Assembly (NCBI GenBank): GCA_958009085.1
Contig: OY253672.1
Coordinates: 744,001-808,000 of the forward strand
Length of the DNA stretch: 64,000 bases
Direction of reading: 5' to 3'
From: Protoeuglena noctilucae
Taxonomy: Eukaryota
Position numbers and translations under genes: made by a program. Positions 1 to 34,055 of the stretch are shown one piece after another. How positions within the stretch are numbered: the stretch's first letter is position 1; every line of letters starts with the position of its first letter. The notes beneath the pieces are model-generated. The model did not search any database. It saw only the letters and a list, made by a program, of their open reading frames with translations, and was not told the DNA's origin.

Positions 1-568
1 GCGTCACCGGGAAGCTGCTCATGGGCCTGAACAGCCGGGAGATGTACATCTTGGACGAATACGAGGACGACGACTACGACCGCGTCGAGACGGTGGCGGT
101 CGAGGCGAGGGGCGAGCAGCCGAGGGTGCTCCTCGGCTCTGGCTCTGCAGGCCTTACCACGCTCCGCGTCGACGTGCAGCTGGTTACGCATCGTCGCTCC
201 CCTGGGTCCCTCCTGCCTGCAGGAGGGCACGGGACAGGAGCACCCCGCTGCCATTTACCTCTGGGTGGACCGCCTCAAGTCTGACCTCGAGGGCGAATGG
301 GACTACGACACGTTCAAGCGGGTGAACAAGGCCAGGTGCGACTCTCGCGGGACCGTACCGTGCTGTGCCCCAGTCGCACTACTGCCTCACATCCACCCCA
401 CTGCTCGTCAGTACATTGCCTCAGAGATCCAGCTCAGCATTGCAAATGGTCATAAACCTTGCCCGCAGTTACGTCGACATGGTGTCTCGGTTCGTGGCGA
501 AGGACCTCCCGGGCCTTCTGGAGCGGCGCAGGGCCGGTGCAGCAGCGGGCGCAGCAAACAAGAACTAG
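1..568 (+). CDS. AIG2-like / gamma-glutamylcyclotransferase-fold protein, 3' part (5' end outside window)
   Basis: Exons ~1-104, 223-335 and 469-568 give VTGKLLMGLNSREMYILDEYEDDDYDRVETVAVE..AIYLWVDRLKSDLEGEWDYDTFK, matching the AIG2 pattern V.G..L.G....E...LD.yE...Y.R...Y.W......G.WD. Confidence 0.75.
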
Positions 569-673
569 GGGGCTTTAGACCTGTTCTGCGACTACCCCTG
601 CAACTAGACACGCTATTGCTACCGATTAACTAACACGGCCAAGCATGCTGCACGTGAGCTAACACAGTTGCAA

Positions 674-2513
674 TCACTGTCGTGTACGGTGCAATGCGCG
701 GATGCCAGGCATGCCCCGGCCCTCAATCAGCTCCAGGCTCGCCCCGCCGCCCGTGCTGATGTGGCTGAACTGCCTGCCGCACCCGCACTGCTCGACGGCA
801 GCCGCGCTGTCGCCGCCGCCGACGATCGTCACCGCTCCCCGCGCCTTGCCCTCCGCCACGGCCCGCAGCACCGCCTGCGTCCCGCCCTCATACACCCCCA
901 CCTCAAACTTGCCCATCGGCCCATTCCAAAAAATCGTCCGGCTGCATGAGACGAGGACCTCCTCAGTCACGACCCCACCTGACGATCGCATCCAATGAAC
1001 CCTAGTAACCCTTGCAGCTCCCCTCACCAGGTCTGCAAGCTGCGTGCGTACAGCTCTGCCGTCTCGGGCCCCACGTCCCCGCCGTAGAGCCCCGGGCGCA
1101 CGCATGGGCTGTCCGGGCCGCAGCAGCCGGGATACACGCGGACGACCTCCGTCTTCGCGCCCTCTTCAAGGGTATCCCCGGCCATGACATCCACGGGGAG
1201 GAGGAAGCGCACGCCGCGCTTAACGGCCTTGTCGAGGATCTCCCGGGCCAGGCCCACCTTATCGACCTCCACCAGGGTCTGCAGAAAGAGTGGGTGGGGA
1301 TGACTAGGATGCACGGATGACAGTGGCATGGGCTCCGCTGCAAGATGGCAATCGCAGTGTGTCTGCCAGCTCACTGCCTCATGCCCGCGTGTCTGCAAGT
1401 CCCACCTGGCCGACATGGATGCCCTCGGCTGCAAGGAACGTGAAGGCCATGCGGCCGCCCAGCAGGATGCAGTCAGCGATGTCAATCAGCGCCTGCAAGG
1501 TCGAGGTGGATGGAATCATCTCACACCCCGGCGTGTCTGCGTGACTGCCCGCAGTGGCTCAGGAAAGCGCTGCCTCAGTCACACAGCGAGCAATTCGTCA
1601 CTCACTTTGAGCACGCCGATCTTGTCGGCCACCTTGGCGCCCCCCACGACGCAGCAAAAGGGGCGTTGCGCCTTCCACATGGCCGCCGTGAGGAAGCGGA
1701 CCTCCTGCCGCAGCAACAGGCCCGGGTAGGCCTCCGCGGCCAGGGATGCGATGCCGCTGACGGACGCATGGGCGCGGTGGGCGGCCCCGAAGGCATCCAG
1801 CACCACCACGTCGGCGCGGCTGGCGTCGAGCAGGGCACGCGCGAAGGCCTCGTCGTTCGCCTCGTCGCCTGCGTGGAAGCGGGTGTTTTCCAGGACGACG
1901 AACTCGCCGGCCTGCAGTTGCGTCACGGCCGCGTGCACCGCCGGGCCCACGCAGTCGTCCACGAATCCCCGGAAGGCCGCCGGCCGCTCGCGCGCGAAGA
2001 AGTCCGCCACCGGCCGCAGGGAGAAAGCCGCCGCGTGCGTCCCGGGCTCCGGACGGCCCAGGTGGGAGAAAACAGCCACCCGCGCCCCCCCGTGCAAGAG
2101 GCAATCGAGGGTGGGGAGGCTGAGCCGGGCGCGCGAGTCGTCACGGATGACGAAGCCTCCCTCTGGGCCCTCCCGGAGAGGCACATTCAGGTCGCATCGC
2201 AGGAGAACGTATCGTCCATTGAAATCAATCTTGCTGATGTCTGCATCTTCGCTGGGGTCGCAGGAAGAAGCGGGGGCGGTGATAGGGAGTGCTGCGCAGT
2301 TTGGCGCAGTCTCGCCGCGACCGCGCTCAGTTTTGCTGCTCACCTGAGAACGTGTTCACAAGCGGTCACCAAATCCTTGTCCGGGCCCGCTGGAGCCGCC
2401 TCGCTGGGAGCAGCGCTGGCAAGCGCAGCCTGTGCTTTGGCCAGGACTGGGTGCATCGGCAGCCCCCTGGCCAGGTGGTCGCATCCTCCGCCGCAGCAAC
2501 TCATGCCGGGCAT
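674..2513 (-). CDS. PGK: Phosphoglycerate kinase-like protein (arsenic-cluster associated), ~5 exons, Cys-rich N-terminus
   Basis: Motifs [65 protein letters not shown]; start at ATG 2513 or 2504 ([10 protein letters not shown]). Confidence 0.92.
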
Positions 2514-2824
2514 CCCCTTGCCAAGCCAAGCAACTTCAGCGACTTGCGTGGACGCAGAAGTGGGTGCAGCGATGGTCACAAGCTTCAAGCTTGACGGCTC
2601 TGCGCAGTTTAGCAGGCGGCTATTCTCCCGATGACTCACTGCATCAAAAACACACACGTGGAAGTGCCACCCACGGTGAAAATAAAAAAAACGCTAGCAA
2701 ATCACGCCGCACGCCAGCAAAACACTGGCAAGGCTGGGCGCATCTGCGATTCCTTGCAGACATCAACGCTTCAAACCTGTGCATTTGCATCTTCCTTACG
2801 GTGATCTCCACGCAGCGCCGCGAG
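2514..2824. promoter_or_regulatory. Putative bidirectional promoter between divergent PGK and GAPDH
   Basis: ~310 bp between head-to-head start codons; AT-rich tract at ~2680-2691 and CACGTG box at 2655-2660. Confidence 0.45.
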
Positions 2825-4334
2825 ATGCCCAGCTCCGGCAGCAGGCCCATGAGGGTCGGGATCAACGGCTTTGGGAGGATCGGGAGGCTCGCGTTTCGCT
2901 GCGCCTGGGAGCACCCAGAGGAGGTGGAGGTGGTGCATGTGAATGAACACCCTGGCGCCCTTGAAAGCAGCGCCTACTTGCTAAAATTCGACTCGGTGCA
3001 TGGTCCGTGGGTGAGGCATCGGCCCCGCGCGCTTGTGGGCCCGCTTTGGGCCTGTTTATGATGCACATTCAGCGCATCTGCACGTGTACCGCAGCGTCCG
3101 GCGGTGGAGGCGGAAGGGGGCTGCATGGTCGTGCGGGATGGCTCCCGGACGGCCACCGTGACGTACAGCCAGGCGCCCTCGCCAGGCGGGATCGACTGGG
3201 CCGGCAAGGGCGTCGACATCGTGCTCGAATGCTCCGGGGCGTTCCTCACGAGGGACGAGCTCCAGCCTTTCTTCGACAAGGGCGTGCGCAAGGTGGGACC
3301 TTGCGGTGCTGGATGGCGACGCAGGGCTGATGCGTTGCCAGTGCGCCCATCTACAAGCGCCGATCGTATTCATAACACTCGCGCTGGCAGGTGGTCGTGT
3401 CGGCGCCCGTCAAGGACCCCAACCCGGTGCTCAACATCGTTGTCGGCTGCAACGACCACGCCTACGACCCCGCCAAGGACCATATCGTCACTGCGGCCTC
3501 GTGCACCACCAACTGCCTGGGCCCGGTCGTCAAGGTGAGAACCCCTAGGACCCTCCGCGCCGCTTCACGCAAGCGCGGCTCTCCTTAGCTCTTGCGCGGC
3601 ACGATGCCTTGCACCTCGACAGGTCTGCAGGTCCCTGCAGGCTGCCCGACGACTGCCCTCCCCGCAGGTGATCCACGAAAAGATCGGGATCGTGCGTGGC
3701 AGCATCACCACGGTGCACAACGTGACCAACACGCAGACGATCGTGGACGCCCCCAACGCGAAGAAGTCCGATTTGCGACGCGCACGCTCGGGCCTGGTCA
3801 ACCTGGCCCCGACCACCACGGGGTCCGCCACTGCCATCACCCTCATCTTCCCGGACCTGAAGGGCAAGCTGAACGGCCACGCCATCCGCGTGCCCTTGAT
3901 CAACTCTTCCATCACCGACTGTGTCTTTGAGGTCAAGGTAAGGCGCCCTGGGTTGCATTCAAGGCGCAGCGTCGGCCGTTGTTGCTCTCAACGAGAGGGG
4001 CGCGTTGCTTTGCATGCATATGGCGCCCGGCGGCACGGGCACACATGTCGAGGTGCGCCGTGCTCCTTCGCAGAGGCCCGTGATGGTGGAGGAGGTGAAC
4101 AAGCTTTTCGAGGAAGCATCGAAGACGTACCTCCGCGACATCTTGGGCTACGAGACCCGCCCGCTCGTCTCGACGGACTTCGTCAACGACCCCCGCAGCA
4201 GCATCGTGGACGCTTTGTCGACTATGGTGGTGGACGGCACGCACGTCAAGGTCTACGCGTGGTACGACAACGAGTTTGGATACGCGAACCGCATGCTCGA
4301 CATCTGCCGCATGGTGGCCAAGAGCCTCGCGTAG
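2825..4334 (+). CDS. GAPDH: Glyceraldehyde-3-phosphate dehydrogenase, ArsJ-associated subtype, 5 exons
   Basis: [10 protein letters not shown]; catalytic ASCTTNCL; subtype-like stretches [79 protein letters not shown]. Confidence 0.95.
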
Positions 4335-4420
4335 CGGCGCAACTAGACACGGGGCGGAGCGTCCTGCATGCTTGCGCACTAGATGTTACTCGTTCAAACA
4401 CGACTGATTTATGCGCAACG

Positions 4421-6906
4421 TTACGAATCTGCACCGTCCGCGGCGCCCTCTGCCACCTTGCCGCCCTCCTCCTCCCCTTTCACAAGGGGCAGCGCGCCGC
4501 AGTAAAGGCCCCCGTCATCGTCTCCTGGCACGAAACGCACCAGCACTCTGCAAACATGCGGACATCCAGGTCAGGCGGCGAGCAGTCAAGCTTTGGGTGG
4601 GACAGGCGGGAGGGCAGCTGTGAAACGTGGAGCGAGGGGATGGAGCCTGCTCAGGGTGAGCCTTGCAGGACCGCCCGCTAAGTGCTCATGACCGCTCACC
4701 CTGCAAGGACGCTCGCGACGGAAGCGGCCCAGAAGCACGCAGCGAACCCGTCCACCGGGCCGTCGCCCACGGACGAGTAGAGGGCGCCAGAGACGAGCGT
4801 GCCAGTGAAGCGGCCGACGGCGTTGGCCATGTAGTAGAACCCAACGTTCATGGCCACCTTGTCCCCGTCGCTGTATTTGACGATGAGGTAGGAGTGGATG
4901 GCGCTGTTGACGGCGAAGATGAGCGCGAAGAGCACTGGGGGCGGGAGCAGGTACGGGCGAGTTGCCGGCACACTGCTACCTTCAAGAGACCCGCAGCGGA
5001 GAGCGAGTGCTGCTGCCTGGCATTGGTCAGGAGATACCTGACTGGGTTGGGAGCTAGAATGCATCATAAAGACTGCTATAACCGAGTCAGGAAGCCGCGC
5101 GTGGCTGTCTCACCGAGGGAGGCGGCGAGGACGGCCACCATGGCGGGGATCTGTCGGTCGTGGAAGATGCCGCTCCATTGGAGGAAAGACCCCGCGAAGA
5201 GCGGGCATGCGACGAGGAGCAGGGCCCACAGCATGGCGTGGTGCTTGTTGGCGGGGAACTGGCGGAGGGGCTGGAGGATGAGGTGGGGTGACCAGGACTG
5301 CACTTGGCCGTACAGCACGATCCACCCGGCCAGGAAGGCGCCGACGGCTTGGCGGGGCCAGCCGAGGCCCACGAGGCGGTCGCGGAAGAAGAAAGGGAGC
5401 GGGACTTCGAACCAGAGGTCGCGGGACATGAAGAGGAAGGCGCGGGCCTGCGGGGAGACAGGGCGCGACAGGGGGCGGTGAGCAACGATAGGGGACCGTG
5501 AGCGACAGCATGGAGCAGCATGGAATGGAGCGGCAGGGTCGCGGCCGGCGCCACGGACTCGCCAGGGACAGCCAGTTGACGCGCGGGTTCTTGCGGAAGA
5601 TGGACGAGAGCCTGAGGTTGTCCTTGCGCGTGCGACCGAGGTCGCGGCTGAGGCCCAGGGCGGCCCAGGGGATGGCAATCAAGATGAGGATTTCCAAAAA
5701 GACGAGGGCCGCGGTGTAGGACCACAGGAGGAAGGCCGAGCCGAGAAAGTAGCCCAGTCCCTTGAGACTGTTCTTCCACCCTGTGATGAGCGACACGAGC
5801 TTGAACAGCCGCCCCTGCTTCTCCTCCGGCGTCACGAGCTTGGTCACCGTCTTGCCGCCCAGCTTCGTCAGGTCCTTGGCCACGCCCGACAGCATCTGCG
5901 GGGGCGGGGAGGGTTTTGGTCCGCAGCCGCCACTTGCGCATCCGGTGATGAGAGGCCCGGGCGCCACGCCCCGCACCTGCGCGATCGTGACGTACAGGAT
6001 GGCCGTGCGCTTGGGCCACCCGTCGTGCCAGCCGAAGAGGAGGCCGATCCCCGCCAGCTGCAGCGTCAGGCCCGTGAGCAGCGTGGACTTGATGCCCCAG
6101 TTGGCGCCTGCTATCCCGGCAAGCAGGTTCGTCACGACGCCCGCCGCTTCGTAGAGCGTGAACATGACGGCCACCTGCCACGCCGAGAAGCCCTGCGGTG
6201 ACGGGCGGGGCACAGAGCCGTCAGGGCTGGGTGGAATGCTGGTGCGTGTGTTGTACACAGCCGGTATGGTGAGATTCCCACCTTGTTGTAGGCATGCAGG
6301 AGCACGATCATGCGCAGGGCGCCATCGGTGATGGTGAAGAGAAGGTAGGACAGGCTCATGATGACGAACGGCATCAGCGCCTTCCGCCTCGCCTGCGAGC
6401 GTGACAGGCGGAGACGTGGCGTGTTTGCGCACGTGATCACGACCTGCGGGAATGCCCGTCGTCGAAAGAACTCGCCTCCGCTGCCCCGGGCTCCCTGGCC
6501 TTCTTTGCCGACGGAGAAGGACAGTCAGTGGGCGGGCGCTGCGAGGTGCTCCTCCGCCGCACGACCACCACGGTTTTGGTGAGCAGGGGGACCTCGGGAG
6601 CGTTGGCTTGGAACACCCGCACTTCCACTTGGCGCTCGCCCTCGCTGTCGCGGAACTGAGGGACAGCAAGGCAGACAAATTGGCCTCCTTGCCGCGCGTT
6701 ACGCCTGGCTTGCAGCGCCTGACGTAAGTGCAGCTTTGCGTCACCTCTATGGCGGGGACGATGCACTCATATTCCCCGTCCTCGGTCCGTTTGGCGGGGA
6801 CGGATGCGCCATCGAAGTTGCAGAGGACTGCAGACCCGGCCGCCACGCTCGCGGCGCAGCGGCAGCTAGACCCCGGCGAGAGCACACTCTGCGCCGCGGG
6901 CGGCAT
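4421..6906 (-). CDS. arsJ: ArsJ-family organoarsenical efflux MFS transporter with N-terminal extra domain, ~8 exons
   Basis: ArsJ signatures [90 protein letters not shown]; last exon ends ..GADS* at 4421. Confidence 0.92.
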
Positions 6907-7872
6907 TTGCTGGATGCAGATGACGGTGGGGGGCGCCCGGATGTGTGTAAATGCTATTTTCCCCCGTGTTTGGAGGATATTTCTCGGGTGGAAGGATGCC
7001 GGGCGGTATCTTGCTTTCCTAGCAGCCGCGCGGGAGGAGGTGCTAAGCCAAATCTTGCCATCCGCGCCTTGGTCAGGTCAGACAGTCGGACGGGTACGGC
7101 AATTGCCAGCGCCCTCAAAGCGCCCACGACCCGGGCGACGTGCTCATGTATCTCCATTCGCGTCGTTGAGCGTCGCTGGACCGCGGGAGACGACCCTCGC
7201 ACGGCTTTCGGCCACCTACCAGGTGAAAGGCTAATGGTCGCATGCCGCCACCTTGCATGTCCCGGCCCCCGTCTCGTCGCCGCGGCTGCTTTACGACATA
7301 TGTGCAAGGCCTGGGGGCGCCCCCTATGGTAGCCTGGCGTGGCGCCTGGGTCAACAGCATGTCTGCGCCTGGGACGGCCGCTGGGCGTCACGGGCCGGCG
7401 GACTCCGGGGTCGGGGCCCATGCCGCCGTTTAAATTGACGTTTAGCCCCACTGCGCTCTCTTGGGGGGGCGATCGCTGGCCGTCGCATGCGGGGGGACCC
7501 GACATGTGGCACCTGCCCGGGGAGCATGTGCAGCCGCCCTCTCGCGTCTAACCCGGCTTGATCGGTTTCGAATTTCCTAGACTATTCCGCTCGGGTGTCT
7601 CATTTCCCCTGAGCGCCCGCGGATGAGCTTCCCCCGCGTTTCCTTGCTTGTGCTCTTGACCTGGAGCCACGGCCCGCGCGAGGGGTTTCCGGCGCGTTTG
7701 CGCGGCACATTCGCTTGTGGATGTGTATTGCTACGGCATGCTGGTGTCGAACGCCGTGGGCGGGCCGCCGGAGCGCGTGGCGGGCTCGCGCTGCGACCAA
7801 ACCGTGCCCTCTGCCCTCGCCATCCCGCGGGATCACGCCTGCACATCCCGCTGCCGCAGGAACACGAGCAAG

Positions 7873-9287: not shown

Positions 9288-9694
9288 GCGGCTATCAAGG
9301 GGCGTGGGTGCCCCGGGGGGTCCGCGGCAAGGGATGCCGTGCAACGCCGCGATCGCATGCACACGTTAAGCTACGTTAAGAGGCTGAGCTAGTGTGATCC
9401 GTGATAGTGTGCTACAGATATCGGTGGGAATAATCGGGGGTGTGGCAGATAGGCGACGCGGCGCGTTGAAGTATCAGGCGCAGGCTTCTGTGCTTGTCGG
9501 TCCTTCAACTCCTCGGGTCTTGTCCCACCGGGAACCTGCTGGTACCAGCAGGCGCACATGTTATGCTCCCAAACGGAGGGGCACCCGCGACGCGCGGCTG
9601 CGGGGCGGAACGCGAGCGCAAGGCCCGCGCCCTCGCCGGGCAGTCGTCCCCCCTTGGTTTTCACATGCTGGAAGCCACCGCCCCGACCGCCAGC

Positions 9695-11010
9695 TCAGTA
9701 GATGCGGATGGGCTCGCCCATCGTGGACTTGATGTACAGCGACCGGACGTTCTGCCAGTTCTTCTTGAGCAGCGAGACCAGGAAGTTGACGGCCATCTGC
9801 AAGAAGCGGCACGCGCCGTTGTGTCAGATGCGGACTGCGCAAGGGTCAGGTACCACCCAACCCTAACCGGCGACGGGTCGTCACATGCACGTGCGTGGGG
9901 AGGGGGCGTCCGAGCAGGCGCCCCGGCGGCTGCTGACGCGCTCGTCACCTGGATGTTGACGTACAGCTGCTTCTCCTCCATGTTGACGTTGCCGACGGCC
10001 ACGCCCAGGCAGAGGACCTTCTTCAGCTGGTACTTGATGGTGGCCTTCATCGTCTCGACGGCCTCGTCCATGCTCTGCCCGTGCGCGATGAGCGTGGGGA
10101 ACTTGCCGGCCTTGTTGAGGCCGGGGCCCAGCAGACGGGGGATGACCTTGATGACGCTGTCCGAGGCCAGGAAGCCCGCGTACTTGTCGGCCAGCTTCTT
10201 CACGAGCTTCTTGTTCTTGTTGAGCTGCGAGGGTCAGGAAAGCGAGCGCCCTTCAGCACATGCCCGGAAGGCGCCCGCGGGCGAGGGCAGCCGGCAGCCA
10301 GCGCCGTCCCACACCTTCTTGAGGTCGTCCACCGACATGGCGTCGACGCCAATGGCCGCGGCCTGCTCGCAGTGCTTGACATCGCCCAGCACGCAGATCT
10401 TCAGGTTGGGCCGGGGCGTGAAGGGCAGCTTGACGGAGCCGGAGAAACGCTTGTCCTTCTGCGGGTCGTAGTTCTTCAGGCCGATCTGCAGCTCGATGGT
10501 CTCCACGAACTTCCTCGGCTTGTCCTTGGCCTTCTGGAGCAGCTCTGAGGGAAGCGAAGGCGAGGGACCCGGTCCGCGCGGAGCCCGGCGCACTTTGGGC
10601 CTCCCTGCAAGGCCCCGCGCCCGAGGCAGGCCCGTTCGGCAGGCGCCTGACCCCGGCCTCGACAAAACCAAACGTTCGCTTCAGCTCGGAGGGCTAGGGG
10701 CGCGAGAGGACGCGCGACCGAGATGCGGCAGCGGGTCGCCGTCGTGGGGGGCCGCTCTCGGAACACGGAGCCCCGAACCGCGCGCGCCTGGCACCGCAAC
10801 CAAAGAAACAATGCGCTTGGCGCAGAGGAGCGCTCGGCGGCCATCCCGCTGCTCCGGGAGGCGCAGCGCGAGCCGACTGCCGGCGCCAGCTACGGGGGAC
10901 CAGCGCGCGGGCCATCTGAGGCACTAACGTCGGCAAATGACCCCCATGACCCGCCCTGGAGCCTCACCCAGGATCTGCTCGCGCAGGTTATCGGGGTTGA
11001 TCTTCGACAT
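9695..11010 (-). CDS. RPL10A: Cytosolic 60S ribosomal protein uL1 (L10a)
   Basis: [75 protein letters not shown]. Confidence 0.97.
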
Positions 11011-16505: not shown

Positions 16506-19500
16506 TCATTCAACGCCATCCACCCGCACCCTAGCCTGCGCCTCTATGCGCTTGTCCTCCACATCCACCCTCGCGATCACCGCATACTCCCCGGGGTACA
16601 GAAACCGCGCCTTGCATCGCAGTAGCTCGAGTGCCTCCCCGCCATTCGGCGACCCCCACCCCGCGTCGGGCTGCCCCTCCCCACCGCCGCCGCCATGCAA
16701 GACCCTTTGCGTCTGACCCGCCAGCACCCACGGCAGGGACCCGGCTCCCCCGTTCGACGGCCCGAGGGCAGATATGCCCACAGACGCGACCACGGGCCCC
16801 GCCGCGTCCCACGCTGCGGATGCAACTCCCACCGCCGCGCCCTGCCTCCACAGACGCACGCGGATGCTCCACCGCTGGCACGCCGGGATCTTTTCGGTTG
16901 CCCGCGGCCCTTCCCGCCCGGCCGCGACCCCGTTCTCCGCCCGCGCCCCCAGCAACCCTCGAGCGTGCCCGTCAGCCGACGTCAGAGACCCAGCCTCCTC
17001 CCGCCACACCTCCACCTCGACCCGCCACGGGCACGCCGACGGCGACGCCTCGTCCTCATCGCCCTCGCTGTCCACGGCCAGCTCCCGTCCTGCCGTCCCC
17101 GGCGTCCCCGCCACCTCCGCCGCGCCACGCCCACCGCCGGCCCTGTCCCTGTCCTCTGGTGTGCCTAGGAAGCCGTGCCACGCAGAGGGCTCCGGCGTGG
17201 CGGCGGGCGGGTGCGCGTGCGACGGCCGCACGACCAGCGGCGGGCGCAGCGGGACGAGCAGGTTGAGCCCCGCGCACACGACGGCCGCGTGCGTGGCGGC
17301 GGGGCCCGCCTGGGCCGCCCCAGGGAGCACCGACACCGCAGCGCCCTGGGACGGGTGCTGGTAGGTCCCGCGCGTGGACATGCCCGCGGGCGGGGGCCGC
17401 CCCCCGACCCCACCACCCGTCGCGTGCGTCCACCACGTGCCTGCCCGCCTGCGAGACCCCTCGCGGTCGCGACCCCCCTCCGCCGCCCGCGACGCCTCCG
17501 CCTCGCCCGGCCAGCTCACGAGCTGAAGGCTCCACGGCACCAGCACGGCGTCCAGCCCGCTCACCACGCTGACCTGCACAGTGGCGCCCTCGTCCGCCGA
17601 CGTCCCCAACTCCCGTGGGGCGTCGTCCCGCTTGCCCCCGACCTGCCGGAGCTTGGCGGGGACGAAGAGGAATGGCCCCATGGCCGCGCTGTCCCGCGTG
17701 TGGCTCGTCGACCGGTTCAGCTTCGCTGATGCGCTCCCCGTGCGCTCCACCGTGCAGAGAGCCGTGAGGAAGTCGCAAGGCACCGCGAGGCCAGGCAGGG
17801 GTTCGCCGGCGCCGGGGACGGCCGCGTCCGCGGAGCGCGGCGCGAGCGCCCGGGAGAGGTCCACGGCGCAGTCGACGAGCTCCTGCTGCACGTGGGTGCC
17901 GAGGTGGGCGTGGTCGCGCTGGAGGGCCCCCACGAGCCGGTGGCAGATCTCGGCGCACGCAGCGGGCGGGTACTGCCCCGGCTGCTCGGACACGACGCTG
18001 AGGACCAGCGCCAGCGCCTCGGGCCACATGGGAGGGGGCACCGCGGTGGAGGCGGGGCGCGGCGGGCGGCGGTCGCGGCGGTCGGTCCGAGGCCTGCGGG
18101 GCGCGGGCAGGTCCGCGGCCGGGGCGAGGAGCCCGACGGTGTCGCGGAAACCCAGCCCCCATGCGGCGGCGACAAGTAAGAGGGGCCGGTCGAAGCGGCT
18201 GGCCGTGAGGGAGTCCGCGAGCGAGACGTACAGCTCGGCCAGGGTTCCCGGGGGTATCGGGGATCCCAGGGCGGAGCAGACGACGCCGGCGGATGCGCAG
18301 GGAGGCAGCGGCGAGGGTCCCGAGTCGAGGAGGACGCTGAGGGCGTGGTGACGCACGAGGGAGGAGAAGCGGGGGCGGCGGGCCTCGACCGCGGCCGCGG
18401 ACAGGGAAGCCAGCTCGGAGAAGAGCAGGACGGGGTCGGTGATCTCGCGAGCCGCGGCCCATGCGCGGCTGAGGGCCTCGGAGGACGGGCGGCCGTGGGA
18501 GGGGCCCAGGGGCGTACCTGCGCACAGCGACACGGTGCCCTGAGTGTTGTGGCAACTCGACACCCGATGAAGCTCGCCCCAGCCGCGACCGCATGCACTC
18601 ACCGGTCGCGCCCGGCGCCGCGTTCGCTGGCGCGCCCTCGCCCTCCTCCGCCTCCTTCCCCACCTCGCCCGGCACCGCGGATGTCACGCGGAGGGCGCGC
18701 GACCGCACCGCGGCAGCCCTGTCCAGGAATCCGAGGCGCTGATAGGCCGCCGAGCACGCGTGCGCGGCCGTGAGGGCGTCCGGGGCGTTGCCGGAGAGGA
18801 AATGCGCAGCCGCCACCCCCTCCAGCGCCCCCGCCGCCCACACGCTGTCGCCAGAGTTGCGCGCCAGGTCCAAGGCGTTGTTGTAGTGCTCGAGGGCGTC
18901 GCCGTGCGCACCGCAGAGAAGCGCCGCGTCGCCGATCGTCTTGCGCACGCGACCCATGCGCTTCTTGCTGCGAGGACCGCGGCAGTGGAGACCGTGACAT
19001 GCGGCGGGGTCGGATGCAAGCAGGCGCGCTACAGCTGCTACAGCCAGCTACCCGGAGCGCACCTGAGACCAGCCTCGTCTTTCCCCTTGATCTGCAGCGC
19101 CTGCAGAGGGTCCAGGCGCGCGGCAGCATCGAGTGGTGTCGTCAGTGACGTGGCAGACGGGGTCTGGCTAAGAGCGAGGGACTCGAGCGCGGCGACGAGA
19201 CCGGCCGTGAGGCGGAGAACGACTGCGGGCAATGGAAGGCACGGGCGTTCAGCCGGGCATGTGCGTGCACTCACTGATGATTGGGCAAGGGTGTGCTGCC
19301 ATGTGCCCCTGGAGAGTCCCCAACCCAGCCTAACGCGGGCGGCACTCACATTCCCTGGCCTCGTCCTCGCCCGACACCGTTGCTGCCTGCGCCTGCACGA
19401 GCTCTGCCTTGTTCGCCATCTGCGTGCCGCAAGGTCCCCACGATGAGAGAGACGCAGTGGGCGCACAGCAAGGGCACACCGAGGGACACTCCGTGAGCTT

Positions 19501-20761: not shown

Positions 20762-23700
20762 ATGCACGCGCGCGGGGCTGGGCGCGCGATTCGGCCTCCG
20801 CGAGCGGCGCCGAGTGGGTGGCTGGGACGGCTTGCGTCTCCACGGCCCGTCGCGCCAGCTGCGTGCGCCAGGCCCGCATCCACTCCCGCGGATGGATGGT
20901 GCACCTGCATCGTGTCGTGCCGTTCGTGCAGGTCGGTCGGCTGCGCCGCCGCCAAGAAGAAAGGGTCCTTGCCGGCGGAGTTCATGGATGACGGTCCGAA
21001 GCTCACGCCAAAGCAGCTCCGGAAGATGAAGGACGAGGAAGAGAGACAAAAGGTGAGCCGTGTAACAGCGCAGTGGCCCGCTGAACCGCGTTGCGGCCGG
21101 ACACGCGGGTGCGCCAGCACCGGCTCGCTCCAGAGGTGTCTGCAGTCTCGCCGACCCTGGCAGTCGCTTTCGACCGTCTTCGCAGAAGCAAGCGGAGAAG
21201 CAGGCTCAGGAGCAGAAGCGGAAGCGCGATGAGGAGCTCCGAACGCGCGCGGGAGCGGAGGCGAGGGGCAGCGGCGCTCCACAGGACGCAGGGCGAGCCG
21301 CCCCGGCAAGCTCGAGCGCCGCTGCTCCGGAGAAGGGTGCCGGTGGCGCTGGTGGCCGCGAGGTGGCGCTCGAAGAGGCGGATGAGCGGGGGAACGAGAT
21401 GGTTTTCACAGGTGAGAGTCGGGACCCTGGAGTGGGCGCCACGTGCGCGCCCTGCAATTCACCATTCGTATTGCGCGACGATCGCTGCCGAAGGGCAACG
21501 ATGGCATGGACGGTCGCCTGGGCACCTGGGCGACGGGGCTGATACGGGGCAGAGCAAGGTCCCGATTCGTCTTTTGCAGAGGGCCTGGTGGGCTCCACGT
21601 CCGGCATTCGCCTGACGAACGTCTCCATTTCCTTTAGGAACCAGAAGGTTCTCAAGGACATCAGCTGGGAGGTCAAGAAGGGCGAGCGCGTGGGGCTGGT
21701 GGGCGTGAACGGCGCGGGCAAGACCACGCAGCTGCAGATCATCATGGGGAACCTCACGCCCGACAGTGGGGAGCTCGCGCGGGCCAAGAACAACATGAAG
21801 ATCGCGTACCTGCGCCAGGAGTTCGACGTGGAGCCGACTCGCACGGTCCGGGAGGAGTTTGCCAGCGTCTTCAACCGCACGCAGCTGACCCAGGCCAGGA
21901 TCGAGAACATTCAGAGGGAGCTTGAGGCAAGTGGACATGTCACCCATCTCTGGCTCGACAACGCATCTGCCTGTTCTCTGGCAGCTCGTCCCTGCGTGCC
22001 GTTGCCCCATCGCACAGCTGCGGTTTCTCGTCTCCAGTCGCGCTGTGTCACAGCCTCGCTGTCCCTCTCGCCCCGCAGTCCGACGAGGCGCAGTCGGACA
22101 TGGACCGCATGGCTGCGCTGCTGGACGACCTGGACAAGCAGCAGCGCCAGTTGGACGCGCTCGATGCGGGCACGATCGACGCGCGCATCGACAAGATGAT
22201 GCCGGAGCTGGGGTTCTCCCCGGAGGACAACGAGCGGCTCGTGGCGTCTTACTCGGGCGGCTGGCAGATGCGCATGATGCTCGGCAAGCTGCTCCTGCAG
22301 GAGCCGGACCTGCTGCTGCTCGATGAGCCCACCAACCACATCGACTTGGACACGATTGAGTGGCTGGAGCGGTACCTCAAGGCCCAGGACATCCCCATGG
22401 TCATCGTGTCCCACGATCGGGAGTTCCTCGACAACCTCAGCACCAAGGTGAAGCGGCAGTCTGATGCACTGGGCCGCTTGATGCCAGGGTGACTGGTGCG
22501 CATGGCCTCGAGTGTGCTGAGGGCCACGGTGGGCGTGCACTCGGTTGCTTACGCGTCACAGTAACAGTCACTGGCACTTGCGTTCACACTGGCATTCGCT
22601 TTCCCACCCAGATTGTGGAGACGGAGCGTGGGGTCAGCACGACCTACTCTGGCAACTACACGGCTTACTTGCGCCAGAAGAGCGAGCGGTACGCCCAGCA
22701 GCTGGCGGCTTACGAGAAGCAGCAGAAGGAGCTGAAGAAGCTCAGGGAGCTGGTGCAGAAGCTCAGCGGGGGCGCACAGAGCGGGCGTGCGGCACAGGCG
22801 CAGAAGCAGGCGAGGGGCTCTGGGGATCGGGCATCGCACGTGTCGGTAGCTGGTGGTGTGCTAGACTTGTTGAGGGGTCAGATACACGACATGTGTGTCA
22901 TGCGCACACTGCAACGATGGCACGGGCGGCGTGCCCGGAGTGGCGCATGCTTTGCTGTGTCAGTGCCCGTGATAGCAGCAATAAGAGAGCCGACCGATGC
23001 TTTGCGTCTCGCAGATTGAGCGGATGGAGGCGGAGGGTCTGGTGGAGAAGCCGTTTGAGTTCAAGCAGCGTCGGTTCCTCTTCCCGTCCACGGAGGAGCG
23101 GTGCGGGCAGATCGTGGTCGAGTGCGAGGGCCTCTCGCACGGCTACGACGGACGCGGGACGCTCTTCGCCGACGTCGACCTCGTGGTGCAGCGGGGCGAG
23201 CGGGTGGCGCTCATGGGACCCAACGGGGCAGGCAAGTCCACGCTCCTGCGCCTCATCCGAGGCCTCGAGAAGCCCCTCGCCGGCGTGGCGCGCTTCGGAC
23301 CCCACAACGTCGTCCCCAACTTCTTCGGTGAGTGTGCGGCAGGGGTGCGCGGCGGTGCAGGTGGCGGGGCGGCGGGGGTGCAGCACTGGTGAAGTGGCGT
23401 TGGAGCGAACCGGGGATTAGAACCGCTCCTTGCTTTTGTCGCTTGCGCAGAGCAGAACCAGGCGGAGGCGCTGGACCTGGACCTCACGGTGATGGAGACG
23501 CTCGTGCGTGCCGCTCCGGACGCCAAACTCAACGACGTCAAGGCTCTGCTGGGGCAGATGATGTTCTCGGGGGACGCCATGGAGAAGAAGGTGCGGATCA
23601 GAGACGGCCTTTGCGGGCCATTACGCAGCTTTTGTGCCAAAATCTGAAAAGCAATTGCATGCTTGACCCGGCAGGTGGCTCGCCATGCGTAGGCCTTGCA

Positions 23701-24306
23701 TCAGCTGACTTGGCACCCTGGCCCTTTCTGCCTGTGATCAAAGCCGCTTCCGCGTTTCCATTTCAGGTCTCCGTGCTGTCCGGCGGGGAGAAGGCGCGGC
23801 TGGCCCTGGCCAAGTTCATGCTGACGCCTGCCACGCTGCTCATCCTCGATGAGCCGACCAACCACCTGGACATCCCATCCAAGGAAATGCTGGAGGGCGC
23901 GCTGCAGCAGTTCGACGGGGCCGTGCTGGCCGTGTCTCACGACAGGTACTTCCTCCGTCAGATCGCCACGCGTGTCTTGGTCGTGGAGGATGGGGAGCTG
24001 ATCGACTACGAGGGTGACTACGAGTACTTCCTGGAGAAGGACGAGGACGCGGCCGAGAAGGACAAGGAGCGCCTGCAGGCGCGCAGGGAGGTGGAGAAGT
24101 CCAACATCAAGGCCAAGAGCAAGATGAGGTGAGAGATGCGGGAGGTGGGGCCCGTGCGCCGTGCATCATTGATGCAACAGCGATGGAACCCGCATCCTTC
24201 GTGCGCCGCACGCAGCAAGGCAGAGAAGATGCTTATGAAAAAGCAGAAGGCCAAGGCATTCAACGAGGAGGCGGCTGGGAAGGGGCGCAGTGCTGGCGGG
24301 GCGTAA
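20762..24306 (+). CDS. ABC-F family ATPase (plastid ABCF5-like)
   Basis: Two NBDs ([43 protein letters not shown]), no TM segments, C-terminal KSKMSKAEK; Arg/Ala-rich transit-like N-terminus; start approximate. Confidence 0.92.
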
Positions 24307-28124: not shown

Positions 28125-31115
28125 TTACGGATGCTCGGCCTCTTCCTCCGCATCCCCATCGCCGGCGTGGTCGCCCTCGTCAGATGACATGCTCACCGTC
28201 GCCAGGGACTCTGCGGCCAGAGGTCCCAGAGTGACTCTGCGGGCCCTTTTGGAATGTGCAGCGCGTTGTTTCGGCTGCATGCGTGCTGCACAACCGACAC
28301 GTGTGACTCACCCAGCGGCGCCTTGTGCACGCGGATCTGGTGGTTCCAGCCCAGTTTCTCCGTAATGCCCGAGTACCAGTCTTGCTCCAGCGCTGCCGGC
28401 GTCACCCTGCGTGCAGGGGTGGAGGCCGCGTGGCGTTTTTCATCGCATGCAAAGCCTGCTTACGGGCGAAAGCCAGGCAATAGCGCCCGCCACACGGTCC
28501 GCTGCATCCTTTGGCCAAGTGCTGGCACAGATGCTTTGAATAGCGTCAACCGTGCCCAGTGGCGTTGGGCCTCACATGGGAAGCGGGAAGGCGGCCGTGT
28601 AGCAGCGGATGTAGGAGCCCTGGGCCATCCTCACGCGCCGGCGACCGTCAAAGCTGGCGCGGGGCTTGGTCCGGATGTCGCACGGGGCCCGGATGTCTAC
28701 CACGGACGTGTCTGGCACCACGACGGGCCTGCGTGTGCCGCACGTGGGGTGGCGCAGCGCTCAGAGCCAGCCGGGGTGCGGGGTGCGGGTCGCGCTCTGC
28801 TTCGGCGCATGCAGCGGGTGGGCCGCCGCAGCAGGTGGGTCATCGTAGTACCACCCAGTCGCCTCACCGGAAGGACAGGGAGTGGGGTGCGACGGGTGTG
28901 ATGAGCATGCACGGCACGCTCGGCGACACGATCGGGCCGCCTGCGCTCATGGAGTACGCAGTGGAGCCCGAGGGCGAGCCAATGATGATGGAGTCGGCAC
29001 GGATGTTGGTGACGTGCATGCCGTCGACCCACAGCTCGACCTCAAGGGCGTGCATGGCCACGCCTCGGTCCACGACGCACTCGTTGAGCACGTGGCTGCG
29101 GGCGCGACGGCAGCGCGAGGCCGATCCGCAAAGGCACACACACACAGACTTGTCACGCAGCGCAGCGGCTGACGCACCGCGTGCCGGTCCTCAAAGCAGC
29201 GCAGCGCTCACTTGACCTCGACCACCTCGCCGCCCTGCCAGACCTCACAGACGAGGCGGGTGCGCAGGGTGCATGGCACGGAGCACGCCACCACGCGGTC
29301 CCCCGGGTGGTGCATGTGGTCCAGAATCTCCTCGCTGTTCACGTGCGTCCCCAGCCCCGCGCTGTCCCCCTTATCCCGCCCCGACGGCTGGCCCGGACCG
29401 CCCGCCCGCCCGGCCTCGTCGCTCGTTAGGGGCCGCTCCGCGGGTGACTCCCTTGGCCGCTCAAGCACCGCGGCAGGCATGCCGGCCTTGCCACTTCCGT
29501 TGCTCCCGCCGCCCCCAGCGCCCACCTGCGCCACGAAGGCCTTGATTCGCTGCACCCGGGCGGCGTCCGTGCTGCCGAGGGCGTCGCCGTCCTCACTCGA
29601 GTCGGGGTCCACGAGGCACGTGTCGTCTATCGGGGCTCTGCGTGGGGCGACGAGACCAGGGCGAGTGCTGACATGCAGTCACGCGACTCTGCCACGCTGC
29701 CACCTGTCCGGGGGGGGGCCCTGGACCAGGGATGGTGACGCTGGGCAGTGCCGGTAGGGTCGAGCAACGCCTATGCCAAAGCCACATCTGCCTATGACAG
29801 CTCGGCCATCTCGTGTCACCTCAGGGCGTTGCCGGCCTCGGCATCCTGGATGACGTTGCCTGGCTTGGACAGCCGCGACGCTCCCTGCGCCTGCAGGATC
29901 CTTCCCAGTGCATCGCGGAAGTGCTTGACATCATACGGCGTCAGGAAACCCAGCGTGCCCATCGAGAAGCTGCGGTGAACACAAGAGAGGTTTAATGACG
30001 CTGCACATCTCTGGTCTGCTTCACCCTGCTGTTTGTTGCCTGGGGTGGATGCGGGCAGGCCTGGATCGTCACCGCCCAGGGACCCGCACCTTACAACAGG
30101 CGGCATCGGGGCGTCTTGGGGAAACAGCGAACCCATGAAGAGGACGGTGCCGTCGCCTCCCAGGGTGATGCAGAGGTCGACCTCCGCTATGCGCGACCCC
30201 AACGGGGCCACGACGCCCCGCATCTCCGCCGATATTTCCTTCGCGTACACCTGCAGAAGAGAGCACGATGCGTCTAGGATCGGGCGGGGGCCGCAGACGG
30301 CGCGCGTCGTCGGCGGATGCGCAAGACGGCCCCACCTCGTCTTCCACCAGAGTCTGGAGGCCCCTCTGGTGCAGCCAGGAGGCAATCTCCTCTAGATACC
30401 TCGTAGCCAAATCATTCTTAGGTTTCTTCACGATCATGGCGATCTGGCGGGCACGGGGAGCGAGTCATCTGTCGGAAAGGGGTTGGCCGCGCTCGGCACG
30501 TTTGCAAGGCCCGCCGCGGCGCACACCTTCGGTGGCCTGTCGAAGCTGATTCTCGCCCGGCGATTGTTACGAAACGCGTCAAACTCGTGCCAGTAGACGG
30601 AGGCTCCTCGGACGATCTCCGCCGAGATATCCGGGTGGTCCTTCCACGCCTGCGGCAATCCAGGCTGTCGCGACATTCGCAGCTGCTGAATCAGCAAGCA
30701 GCGTGTAGTCACACGATCGCAGCGTTGGCATTGACGATGAATGGCGGTGTCGCAAGCCAGCGAGCGGGCCAAACACACTCGCCTCCACAGGACGGGCCCG
30801 CATGCGGGGACGGGGCCGATGCATCTCGTGGAAAGGCCTGCACGGCTGTATGTTGCGCATGTGGTTGCACGTGCCGCCCTTCACGGCGGGAGAGAGCTCC
30901 GGACGCCCCAGCGCCATGGCGCGCGAAAGCTGTCCACCCGGCCCCACGAGCCCCGCCATCGCGCGCGGCCTCTGGCAGGCGCAGCGCACGCCTCTCAGTC
31001 CGATAGACAGGCCACAGCCAGGCAAGATCGTCTCGCTCGCGGTCCGAGCGCGGGGGACCGGTCCGCGCGTGTGCAGGAGGGCTCGCCGCGCCAACCACAG
31101 CGAGCAGGATGACAT
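28125..31115 (-). CDS. NAD(H) kinase
   Basis: [59 protein letters not shown]; organelle-targeting-like N-terminus. Confidence 0.9.
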
Positions 31116-31368: not shown

Positions 31369-34055
31369 TCACCACGAGCCGACCCCGTCGCTGTCGCCCT
31401 GGCGCGCTGCGTTGCTCTCGAGGTAGGCCCGCATCTTCTTCACCTGCTCCAGCACGCTCCGCGAAGACGTGCCGCCCTCCGCGTCCCTCGACTGCAGGGG
31501 TACAGACACCGCATGCATCACTAGAGCAATCGTCATGTCGTGTAATGTAAGCTGAACCTCACCGAGTGGCTGAGAGCCTCACCTCGGCCGACATCTGGAA
31601 GTCGAAGACCTTGGTCACGTCATCACCAAAACGCTCGTCCACCGTCTTGAGGTCCGCTGCGGTCAGCTGCGACAGGCTGCAGCCCTTGTCCTCCGCCAGC
31701 TTGACGCAGGCCCTGCATTTCATGGTTGGGTCGTCCCCGTTTAAGCAGGGTGACCACAGCACGTTTGCGACCCCCCGAAGGGTTCGCCAAAGGGCGCAGA
31801 GCAAGCCGGGTCGCGCCGCCAGCGGCCTTGCCCGGAGATGTGGTGCGTCTCGCGAAAGGGCACCCCCTTGCGGACCAGGTACTCGGCGAGGTCCGTGGCC
31901 AGCATGTCTCCCGACAGCGCGGCACGCATCCTGTCCGGCTTGATCTTGAGCGTGGACAGCACCCCTGCGGGAGAGGCACGACTGTCGGCACTGTGCGATG
32001 CAGCATCGCCCACTGCCGCCATCGCAGTGCCTCCAGCGAACCCGCACCCGTGGAGATGCGGAGGACGTCATGGGTCGTGTCGATCGAGTCGAACAGCAGG
32101 TCCCAGCACTCCTGGAGGTCCTTGTTGTACGTCGTGGGCGTGTTCTTGACCACGGACAGGATGCCCGCCAGGTTGCCCTGCATGCGCCCCGCCTTGCCCC
32201 GCACGAGCTCCAATGCGTCGGGGTTCTTCTTTTGAGGCATCAGCGAAGAGCCCGTCGCGTACGCGTCGCTGCACTGGACCATCGAAAAGGGGCCGGACGA
32301 GTAGATGATGAGGTCCTCCGCCCAGCGAGAGAGGTGCGTCAGAGTCAGGGCGCACCTGCGGGCGAGGAGGCCAGCAGCGCACGCCCTCGCAACGTGATCC
32401 TCCGCAACGAACGCAGATGCGTACGTGCCACGAGCAGCAGCTGCAGTTGGCGTCCCAGGCCGGGAGCACCGCGTGCTGAGTAGTCAGAAACAGCTAGCAG
32501 CACTGCGCACTACTTGCCAGAACACCGTCTCGATCGCGTAGTCCCGGTCCGACACGGCGTCCATCGAGTTGGGGCACACGCCGCCCTCGAATCCGAGCTC
32601 ATCGGCGAGGAACTGGCGGTCGACCTTGAAGGGGTTGCCTGCCAGGGCGCCTGACCCCAGCGGCAGGGTGAGGCACCTGCGGGGGCGACAGCGGTGCTGG
32701 CATGGAGGCGCGGAAAGCTCCGTGCTGCATCGACAGAGCGTATGTTCGTGACAGGCTCTGGGGTCCTCCGCATTCAGGCGTCGCACCTCGGGATGATTTG
32801 CGCCAAGCGCATGTCGTCGCGCTGCCACGACGCCGCGTGCGACATGAGCCAGTGAGACCACCGGACCGCCATGGCCGATTGCAGATGCGTGAACCCCGGC
32901 ATCAGCACGTCCACTTCCGCCTGCGGCAGGATCGCGAGCTGTCATGCCGCAAGCAGTGCCAGGCACCATTTGCATCGTCCACCCGGCGCTGCGAGCGCCG
33001 CCGCACCTCAGCTCGGTTGGTCGCCACAGCGATGAGCTCCTGCAGGGTCGCACGCAAGATCCGCAGCCGCCTGGCTAAGTACAGCCGCGTGTCCGTGGCC
33101 ACCTGCGAGCGAGCCACCAGGCGCCAATCCGTGACAGGGGTCGCTGAAGTTGTCATCCCCAGCCCGGCTGTCGCAGCCTCCACGTGCGTGCCCCATCGCC
33201 GGACCCGCACTGCCAGGACATGAGCGAGCCAGCACCGACAGCAGGCGCAAGTGCAGGTGGGTGTCAGGCAGTCTTTTTAATTGTCACCTGGTCATTGCGG
33301 GAGCGTCCCGTGTGGAGCTTGCCCCCGACGGGCCCCACGATCTCTGAAAGCCTCCGCTCGTTCGCCGTGTGGATGTCCTCGTCTCCCTGCTTGATCTGGA
33401 ACGTCCCGTCGGCCCACTCGCGGCCCACCTGGGTCAGACCGTCCACCAGAGTCTTCGACTCCACCTCCGTCAGAATGCCACTCTGCGGGGATCGAAGGCA
33501 GGAGACGCGCGTCATATGCTTCCGCGGCTGCGTCAGAGCCCCGCAACTGCGCTCGCCTCCAGCTGCACGCGCCTTGGCAAGGGCCTTGGCGTAGGCCTGC
33601 GAGCCCTGGATGTCCTCCTGCGCCATGCGCTTGTCCACGCTCAGCGACTCGTTAAACTTCTCCATTAGCGGGTCCGTCGCGCCCGTGAAGCGCCCGCCCC
33701 AGAGCTTCTTGGCCTCGGCGGCGTGCATTGTCACCGAGACACGCTGGGAACAGAGGATGGGAGGGGCAGATAAAGCTTCCACGTACCTTTTGGCGGTCCC
33801 TGGCACTCTATGGCATTAAATCTCTTGGATGGCCAAGCGCCATTACCATCGCCGCACGCGGCACCGCTCCCCGGGGTGGCCAAGTGGCGTGGCGGGTCCA
33901 GGCGCCCGGCGGTGAGCTCGGTCGCGATACCCGGACGCGCCACATGCGAGCGCGGTCGATGAAAGTGTAGGACTCACCCCGCGATGAGAGACCGGCGGGA
34001 AAGGGCGAGGGGCCGCGCCGGCTCGCGAGCACACCGCCACGCTCGATGCTGCCAT
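31369..34055 (-). CDS. argH: Argininosuccinate lyase (plastid-type), many exons
   Basis: [77 protein letters not shown]. Confidence 0.96.

Follow-up and report, generated by a model that had tools for sequence, protein, structure and literature searches.

A probable ArsJ, GAPDH3 and PGK3-like arsenate-resistance neighbourhood with altered kinase residues in the marine green alga Protoeuglena noctilucae

A 64,000-nucleotide stretch of Protoeuglena noctilucae DNA (contig OY253672.1 of assembly GCA_958009085.1, positions 744,001 to 808,000 of the forward strand; hereafter the window) carries three adjoining, intron-containing genes at positions 674-6906: a PGK-like gene on the minus strand, a GAPDH gene on the plus strand and a gene for an ArsJ-like transporter of the major facilitator superfamily (MFS) on the minus strand. 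The trio is very probably a marine green-algal member of the published ArsJ-type arsenate-resistance neighbourhood of ArsJ, GAPDH3 and a PGK3-like protein. The cluster is a known system, described in a 2020 publication and treated as known in one of 2023, to which the window adds a distant and naturally expressed marine member. It also offers leads on the role of the PGK: adenine contacts carry two basic substitutions, a cysteine motif is peculiar to the clade, and the exporter probably has an Ig-like domain for docking. Settling that role would bear on the dispute over whether ArsJ exports 1-arseno-3-phosphoglycerate (1As3PG) or free arsenate.

Gene models were built from stop-to-stop open reading frames (ORFs) and homology-guided splice models, in which combinations of GT or GC donors with AG acceptors were scored against the closest homologues of the PGK (P0002), the GAPDH (P0121) and ArsJ (P0241). 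RNA contigs from four metatranscriptome runs of one study, counted as one source, were compared with window positions 400-7400; such contigs define neither expression levels nor transcript starts and ends. All 15 predicted introns (four in the PGK, four in the GAPDH and seven in ArsJ) correspond to joints in these contigs, and extra RNA joints at 2251/2344, 6387/6471 and 6655/6745 exposed the 5′ exon of the PGK and exons 1-2 of ArsJ, which homology alone had missed. Spliced transcripts of all three genes occur in natural marine samples. The introns are 81-179 nucleotides long; 13 have GT..AG ends, and the remaining two, both in ArsJ (6393-6475 and 5448-5562, minus strand), are of the GC..AG type and share the donor GCGAGT. 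Phase 0 applies to all four GAPDH introns, whose joints are present in each of the four RNA runs.

The coding part of the PGK3-like gene occupies 674-2513 on the minus strand, with five coding exons (2513-2344, 2251-1606, 1492-1406, 1278-1028 and 941-677) and a stop codon at 676-674, and encodes 473 residues. Its 5′ intron, 2343-2252, is known solely through an RNA joint. The GAPDH gene (2825-4334, plus strand) has five exons, 2825-3010, 3095-3292, 3391-3534, 3668-3937 and 4074-4334 including the stop, and encodes 352 residues of the ArsJ-associated type, GAPDH3. The ArsJ-like MFS transporter (4421-6906, minus strand) starts with an ATG at 6906 and is encoded by eight exons (6906-6745, 6655-6476, 6392-6282, 6192-5977, 5895-5563, 5447-5114, 4934-4700 and 4547-4424) with a stop at 4423-4421, giving 565 residues. 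ORFs, splice models and RNA joints reproduce, to the base, the limits that the initial annotation had given for the three genes, together with its arrangement: the PGK and GAPDH genes lie head-to-head with 311 nucleotides (2514-2824) between their ATG codons at 2513 and 2825, where about 310 had been estimated, and GAPDH and ArsJ lie tail-to-tail with 86 nucleotides (4335-4420) from the end of the GAPDH stop at 4334 to the start of the ArsJ stop at 4421. Family assignment is far beyond chance, with exon E-values as low as 1e-43 (ArsJ-associated GAPDH model), 4e-26 (ArsJ) and 1e-58 (the PGK model of Pfam).

The head-to-head spacer is presumably a shared bidirectional promoter. The RNA contig pieces listed there end at 2649 on the PGK side, which is the extent of the PGK 5′ leader, and at 2784 on the GAPDH side. 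The first 7 kb of the window are GC-rich (0.57-0.69); GC content drops to 0.57 in 2501-3000, and the spacer contains an A-rich run at 2679-2690. A repeat search of the spacer returned nothing beyond short, low-identity matches at chance level. At the other end of the GAPDH gene, RNA contigs extend to 4404-4411, and one contig (X11 record 1) continues into the ArsJ exons. The last GAPDH exon is joined to the last ArsJ exon in RNA (4072-4547). Downstream of the PGK gene, a contig joins an exon boundary at 466 to the last PGK exon (466-941), and its loose end reads as a plus-strand peptide, ...YDTFKRVNKA, that is seen at about 300-340. The 3′ transcript ends of convergent neighbours seem to overlap or abut both at GAPDH/ArsJ and at 466-941. 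Separately, a contig from run X9 (depth 5.1) is without 7 nucleotides at 6778 in ArsJ exon 1, which would break the reading frame; possible causes of this gap are an error of assembly, variation between strains, or transcripts that do not encode the N-terminal domain.

On sequence grounds, the GAPDH is of the bacterial arsJ-linked type, as the initial annotation had proposed. NF033735, the NCBIfam model for ArsJ-associated GAPDH, outscores all others on exons 2-5 and comes second on exon 1 (59.5 against 61.9 bits). Its scores over exons 1-5 are 59.5, 32.7, 68.9, 149.7 and 129.5 bits, which add up to 440.3; the corresponding sums are 379.7 for NF006512 (four exons) and 318.9 for TIGR01534. In this exon-wise scoring each exon bears its own local-alignment costs. 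The Pedinophyceae orthologue P0121 (517.3 bits), the Chlamydomonas reinhardtii protein CHLRE_07g354200 (P0155; 458.7) and the bacterial P0240 (555.4) all lie above the 450-bit cut-off of the model. Among the best 120 relatives of exon 4, the named matches are without exception proteins of green algae or GAPDHs of bacteria; the annotation ArsJ-associated GAPDH occurs once among them, GapA or GapC never. Compared with Protein Data Bank (PDB) chains, the orthologue P0121 scores about 278-280 bits against GapA, 265-268 against GapC and 324.5 against the best bacterial chain. The window GAPDH is 74% identical to its closest named relative, from Pedinophyceae sp. YPF-701, 65% identical to P0155, 56-61% identical to bacterial ArsJ-associated GAPDHs and 37-50% identical, over long matches, to GAPDHs of bacterial gap-pgk operons. 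In a quick tree of 47 rows, built without plant GapC or GapA rows, the window protein and 13 named algal GAPDH3 proteins form one group of 14 rows with a Shimodaira-Hasegawa-like approximate likelihood ratio (SH-aLRT) support of 97, within which the Pedinophyceae sp. YPF-701 protein is the window's nearest neighbour. This group and 13 bacterial arsJ-linked GAPDHs are separated from 20 GAPDHs of bacterial gap-pgk operons with a support of 100. The protein contains SCTTNC (residues 165-170, 3499-3516) and TTVHN (residues 190-194, 3707-3721), the catalytic cysteine and histidine motifs of phosphorylating GAPDH.

The transporter is most safely named 'ArsJ-like' from its sequence. The ArsJ model NF033734 is its sole NCBIfam match, in agreement with the initial annotation though at a score below the model's cut-off; the match runs through exons 3-7 and covers model positions 3-382 of 392. 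Pfam MFS_1 gives weak matches on two exons, and a crude hydropathy count, to which no weight is given, shows eight peaks. Eukaryotic ArsJ-like relatives score 384.6, 410.1, 379.8 and 399.2 bits on NF033734 and thereby straddle the equivalog cut-off of 400, which places the eukaryotic ArsJ branch at the edge of this bacterial model. The closest named relative is again from Pedinophyceae sp. YPF-701 (66% identity). ArsJ-like transporters also occur in diatoms and red algae, and those of the hemichordates Glandiceps, Saccoglossus and Ptychodera (P0244-P0246) are 55-58% identical to the core of the window transporter, with the Saccoglossus protein scoring 399.2 bits on the ArsJ model. When genome contigs were scanned with aligned eukaryotic ArsJ-like proteins, none of 53 pattern matches was confirmed.

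The algal ArsJ carries an N-terminal extension of about 120 residues, and the match to NF033734 starts only at the first transmembrane segment. NCBIfam and Pfam scans of these first residues of the window protein (exons 1-2) returned no family match. The extension nevertheless contains a pattern, C-x-F/W...V-P-A...C-x-x-P, that is common to the window protein and 12 of 47 other ArsJ-like proteins with long N-termini, including those of Chlorella, Micractinium, Chlamydomonas incerta, Volvox and Tetradesmus. A hidden Markov model (HMM) derived from the N-termini of 11 homologues matches the window protein with an E-value of 4.5e-6 (19.9 bits) and matches 18 of the 121 ArsJ-like sequences searched. 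When the N-terminal profile was compared with all PDB sequences, the single match at E<=10 was the TIG domain of CAMTA1 (2cxk, E 0.012), and Pfam TIG gives sub-threshold matches in three of eight ArsJ homologues (E 0.095-0.17). For the N-terminus of one homologue, AlphaFold gives an all-beta model whose mean predicted local distance difference test (pLDDT) score is 62.5. The top Foldseek rows for this model are BCAP DBB, plexin IPT and CAMTA1 TIG at E 0.015-0.1, with no match at E<=0.001. These profile and model comparisons suggest that the algal ArsJ N-terminus is likely a TIG/IPT-like domain, which in the window would comprise residues 14-72 (6602-6867, minus strand; exons 1-2 with the intron inside) and include a 23-residue core motif at 6822-6754. 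The usual topology of MFS proteins puts the N-terminus in the cytosol. One ArsJ relative, P0252, has two copies of the TIG-like domain.

The PGK-like protein has a complete kinase fold by homology, with exons 2-5 covering positions 1-379 of Pfam PF00162 (199.2, 22.9, 31.4 and 96.7 bits; sum 350.2). It is 63% identical to its best match, the metagenome protein P0002, 50-51% identical to P0003, P0363 and the Haematococcus lacustris protein P0016, and 42-47% identical to bacterial and plastid-type PGKs. A five-protein profile was compared with 1.84 billion representatives, and inspection of the matches identified 13 relatives with the signatures set out below. Judged by these sequences, the window PGK belongs to a distinct, signature-bearing clade: in a tree of PGKs, 11 rows (the window protein and 10 relatives, including H. 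lacustris P0016) separate from 39 other PGKs with an SH-aLRT support of 100. The rows were picked by motif first, with the partial sequences P0398 and P0059 and the near-duplicate P0040 left out, so the tree is a check on the clade rather than an independent discovery of it. A fusion of PGK to TrmB, the PGK4B architecture, was absent from the top 14 profile matches scanned with Pfam.

The initial annotation had stated that this PGK retains the canonical catalytic motifs, which holds for one side of the active site. Residues were mapped by motif spacing to human numbering, and those kept in the window protein are Asp23, Asn25, Arg38, His62, Arg65, Arg122, Arg170, Glu192, Lys215, Lys219, Asn336, Glu343, Asp374, GGGDS and STGGGAS (the STGGG hinge); Lys215 and Asp374 are presumed here to be functional residues of PGK. 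In the alignment, all of the bisphosphoglycerate (BPG)-binding and phosphoryl-transfer residues checked are retained across the clade. The BPG-site and hinge residues were taken from PMC3900376, and the nucleotide contacts from Table 2 of PMC2441801.

The part of the claim that did not stand concerns the adenine contacts Gly238 and Val341 and a cysteine-rich insertion before Gly312. Human Gly238, at a distance of 3.6 Å to adenine C6 in the ADP complex according to PMC2441801, is canonically Gly or Ala and is replaced in the window by Arg286 of a GGR motif (residues 284-286; 1451-1459, minus strand, placed by motif mapping). Every one of the 14 clade rows has Arg or Lys at this position; among 255 other PGKs, the 231 motif matches comprise 122 Gly, 106 Ala, 2 Ser and 1 Lys, with no Arg. 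By the same mapping, Lys396 in GPMGKFE (908-910, minus strand) stands at human Val341, a second adenine contact, where 11 of the 13 clade rows with the motif have Lys or Arg, and elsewhere Val is found in 172 of 238 and Arg in 10 of 238. The insertion, of about nine residues, aligns just upstream of the GxDxGP strand that holds human Gly312, and reads CCGPDSPC in the window (residues 353-360; 1102-1125, minus strand). Its pattern CCxx(D/E/Q)x(P/A)C, in short CCxxDxPC, is present in 12 of the 14 clade rows and in none of the 255 other PGKs; the clade member P0366 is without it. An extra cysteine before TIFWNGP is nearly invariant in the clade alignment. In our reading, these residues point to a PGK in which the acyl-phosphate side would be intact and the adenine subsite rebuilt. 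At the N-terminus, the clade relatives P0003, P0364 and P0368 start with MG or MGC; we presume that these starts, and the first 11 residues of the window protein (2513-2480, minus strand), are possible acylation signals that could tether the enzyme to a membrane.

Bacterial loci place the PGK apart from the other two genes. Around close relatives of a bacterial ArsJ-associated GAPDH, we examined 80 bacterial loci, a taxonomically narrow sample of mostly Rhodobacterales and relatives, with 10 kb on each side. In 79 of these loci, gapdh has an arsJ homologue on its own strand within 500 bp, and a PGK lies within 10 kb in none of the 80. The initial annotation had described the trio as a bacterial-derived module; this fits the gapdh-arsJ pair, and the PGK is absent from the bacterial module as sampled. 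Metagenome contigs scanned with the PGK3-like alignment yielded a second set of 80 bacterial-looking pgk loci, with uninterrupted matches of 37-46% identity, which bears on bacteria and not on eukaryotic synteny. A GAPDH match accompanies pgk in 47 of these (several partial, at contig ends), ArsJ in none of the 80, and one locus has GGRM and is without the cysteine motif. These counts agree with the published view that GAPDH and ArsJ form a bacterial unit to which PGK was recruited in algae.

Foflonker and Blaby-Haas (2020; PMC7826186) describe the ArsJ-GAPDH3-PGK3 neighbourhood in green algae; they call the GAPDH subfamily GAPDH3 and give the PGK subfamilies the names PGK3, in Chlorophyceae, and PGK4A, in Mamiellophyceae. 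In the same account, C. reinhardtii insertion mutants of Cre07.g354150 (ArsJ) and Cre07.g354250 (PGK3) grow poorly on arsenate, so the chlorophyte neighbourhood with arsenate-sensitive mutants that the initial annotation had mentioned is indeed in print. The enzymatic role of PGK3 is stated there as not known, with recycling of 3-phosphoglycerate (3PGA) offered as one hypothesis, and a reading of the neighbourhood in terms of carbon metabolism is weighed and rejected. A 2023 paper on a red alga (PMC9812998) mentions 'ArsJ-GAPDH-PGK' as a known green-algal cluster, and searches of one literature library on PGK3 with arsenate and on algal ArsJ with GAPDH returned no further paper on the algal PGK. 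The window shares with the C. reinhardtii neighbourhood the three families, their order PGK - GAPDH3 - ArsJ and a PGK of a non-canonical clade, and its GAPDH has 65% identity with the protein of CHLRE_07g354200, a locus numbered between Cre07.g354150 and Cre07.g354250. The main text of PMC7826186 makes no mention of PGK features at the level of residues or of the N-terminal domain of ArsJ; the clade changes at Gly238 and Val341, the CCxxDxPC insertion and the TIG-like domain of ArsJ appear to be new in detail.

Bacterial arsJ-linked GAPDH converts glyceraldehyde-3-phosphate and arsenate to 1As3PG, and ArsJ then removes the arsenic, either as 1As3PG (the Pseudomonas model) or as free arsenate released from 1As3PG (the Vibrio model). 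The gapdh-arsJ pair of Pseudomonas aeruginosa DK2 (Chen et al. 2016, through its citation by PMC7826186 and PMC9601151) resembles the window in that an arsJ-linked GAPDH adjoins an ArsJ MFS permease. It differs in that the window genes are convergent rather than co-directional, have four (GAPDH) and seven (ArsJ) introns, and are joined by a PGK, and in that the algal ArsJ has its N-terminal extension of about 120 residues. In the Vibrio cholerae var operon, as set out in PMC9601151, the GAPDH VarG prefers arsenate over phosphate, and GAPDH and ArsJ are likewise accompanied by a third protein, VarH, which acts on or after 1As3PG; VarH is a cysteine-based enzyme of the tyrosine-phosphatase fold, whereas the third protein in the window has a PGK fold. 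That study disputes the export of 1As3PG and proposes that the phosphatase VarH frees arsenate for ArsJ; it describes 1As3PG as detected only intracellularly, with no extra extracellular 3-phosphoglycerate (3PG) and with increased 1As3PG in a varH mutant. Housekeeping gap-pgk operons of bacteria also have adjacent GAPDH and PGK genes, but these are co-directional and not head-to-head as in the window; their GAPDH is of another type (support 100), their PGK is without the Arg/Lys238 and cysteine signatures, and ArsJ is absent (0/80). A further parallel in a photosynthetic eukaryote is the cooperation of GAPC1 and OCT4, a GAPDH and a transporter, in the arsenate tolerance of Pteris vittata, which PMC7826186 treats as convergent and which involves plant families, GAPC and OCT4, rather than GAPDH3 and ArsJ.

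By analogy with these systems, GAPDH3 would arsenylate triose phosphate and ArsJ would export the product, while the PGK3-like enzyme would have its place in the cycle on the side of 3-phosphoglycerate or the acyl anhydride. We tentatively prefer, as one candidate among several, that the PGK3-like enzyme takes the 3PGA left by hydrolysis of 1As3PG and regenerates 1,3-bisphosphoglycerate (1,3-BPG) or triose phosphate. With 1,3-BPG restored, GAPDH3 could re-form its acyl-enzyme and load arsenate again. Changes at the adenine contacts are the main reason why simple ATP-driven recycling is given no more weight than this.

Several points weigh against an arsenate-resistance cluster with a recycling PGK. 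The arsenic function of the window trio is carried over from Chlamydomonas, Pseudomonas and Vibrio, and the name 'PGK3' is based on the clade-mate from Haematococcus (Chlorophyceae) and on linkage. Arg286 and Lys396 at adenine-contact positions call ordinary use of ATP/ADP into question, and with it ATP-driven recycling. Both family models fall short of their cut-offs when exons are scored separately: the GAPDH sum of 440.3 bits stands against a cut-off of 450 set for the whole protein, and the transporter sum of 331.9 bits lies under the 400-bit equivalog cut-off. The GAPDH tree is a quick one in which plant GapC and GapA had no rows. Finally, the exported species is disputed, as the Vibrio study argues that ArsJ exports free arsenate.

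This last point leads to a different role for the kinase, in which 1As3PG is a transient intracellular sink, ArsJ exports free arsenate and the PGK3-like protein is the algal counterpart of VarH in de-arsenylation. It would bind 1As3PG in its intact BPG site and discharge the acyl-arsenate to 3PGA and arsenate beside the exporter, with water or some acceptor besides ordinary ADP as the possible recipient. We regard this as possible but less probable than recycling. It draws on the Vibrio observations that PMC9601151 reports (1As3PG confined to the cell, no rise in extracellular 3PG, accumulation of 1As3PG in the varH mutant), on the retention of all BPG-site residues checked, on the altered adenine contacts (position 238 in 14/14 clade rows and position 341 in 11/13) and on the finding of no VarH-like phosphatase among the window's 140 longest ORFs. 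Against it, the 10 of 238 motif matches with Arg at position 341 in other PGKs indicate that this change alone is tolerated in ordinary enzymes, and the spontaneous hydrolysis of 1As3PG may make an enzyme superfluous. A regulatory role is improbable but has its own basis in the cysteines: those of CCxxDxPC and the one before TIFWNGP might bind arsenite or sense redox state and so tune or localise the pathway, and the soluble enzymes may be docked to the membrane through ArsJ's TIG-like domain. The restriction of the motif to the clade (12/14 rows against 0/255), the nearly invariant fourth cysteine, the MG or MGC starts of three clade members, which are possible acylation signals, and the TIG-like domain itself are consistent with such a sensor or scaffold. 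Conservation of all the catalytic residues checked argues for catalysis instead, P0366 is without the insertion, the TIG scores are marginal (sequence E 0.012; Foldseek E 0.015 or weaker; mean pLDDT 62.5), and the arsenite-binding, redox and docking roles are putative.

It is very improbable that the trio simply handles triose phosphate and 3PGA alongside a metabolite transporter, with no dedicated role in arsenic metabolism. Two of the three genes do come from glycolytic families, bacterial gap-pgk operons are common (a gap match in 47 of 80 metagenome pgk loci, several of them partial), the transporter scores under the ArsJ equivalog cut-off, and ArsJ-like proteins are widespread in eukaryotes, including diatoms, red algae and hemichordates. 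The GAPDH is nevertheless of the arsJ-linked and not the operon type, ArsJ occurs in none of the 80 gap-pgk loci, and the text of PMC7826186 both reports arsenate-sensitive arsJ and pgk3 mutants of Chlamydomonas and considers and rejects this explanation. It is conceivable, though doubtful, that what algae have added to the bacterial gapdh-arsJ pair makes up a complex that handles arsenate at the membrane. In it the PGK3-like protein, its nucleotide pocket rebuilt by Arg/Lys at Gly238, Lys/Arg at Val341 and a CCxxDxPC loop beside Gly312, would no longer be an ordinary ATP:3PGA kinase and would instead process 1As3PG or exchange arsenate and phosphate on the acyl anhydride, maybe under control of its cysteine cluster. 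The cytosolic TIG-like domain of ArsJ would hold the enzymes at the exporter so that the short-lived ester or the freed arsenate leaves the cell at once.

Linkage of the genes appears to vary among other green algae. In Parachlorella kessleri, the GAPDH3 and ArsJ locus tags are consecutive (N2152v2_006744 and N2152v2_006745), and in Chlorella variabilis the contigs bearing GAPDH3 and ArsJ are equally long. In Pedinophyceae sp. YPF-701 and Nannochloris, GAPDH3 and ArsJ are apparently on contigs of differing length, and linkage may have been lost.

The surroundings of the cluster were surveyed through the 140 longest stop-to-stop ORFs outside it (at least 184 residues; Pfam E<=1e-5), a scan that would miss genes with short exons. 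No other arsenic gene was found among these 140 ORFs, from which short-exon genes could escape. A methyltransferase at 41199-41801 (plus strand) was considered as ArsM and ruled out, since it is a UbiG/COQ3-type S-adenosylmethionine (SAM) methyltransferase by NCBIfam, with 173.7 bits on TIGR01983 (cut-off 102.95) against 24-29.5 bits for ArsM. The cluster is surrounded by ordinary nuclear genes. On the minus strand, Pfam identifies a ribosomal protein of the L1/L10a family (9664-10233), TRAPPC9 (17059-19047), an NAD kinase (29819-30391) and an argininosuccinate lyase (31562-33074); on the plus strand, it identifies an ABC ATPase with an ABC_tran_Xtn domain (21543-24129), a class-III aminotransferase (42076-44029) and a malic enzyme (45649-47548).

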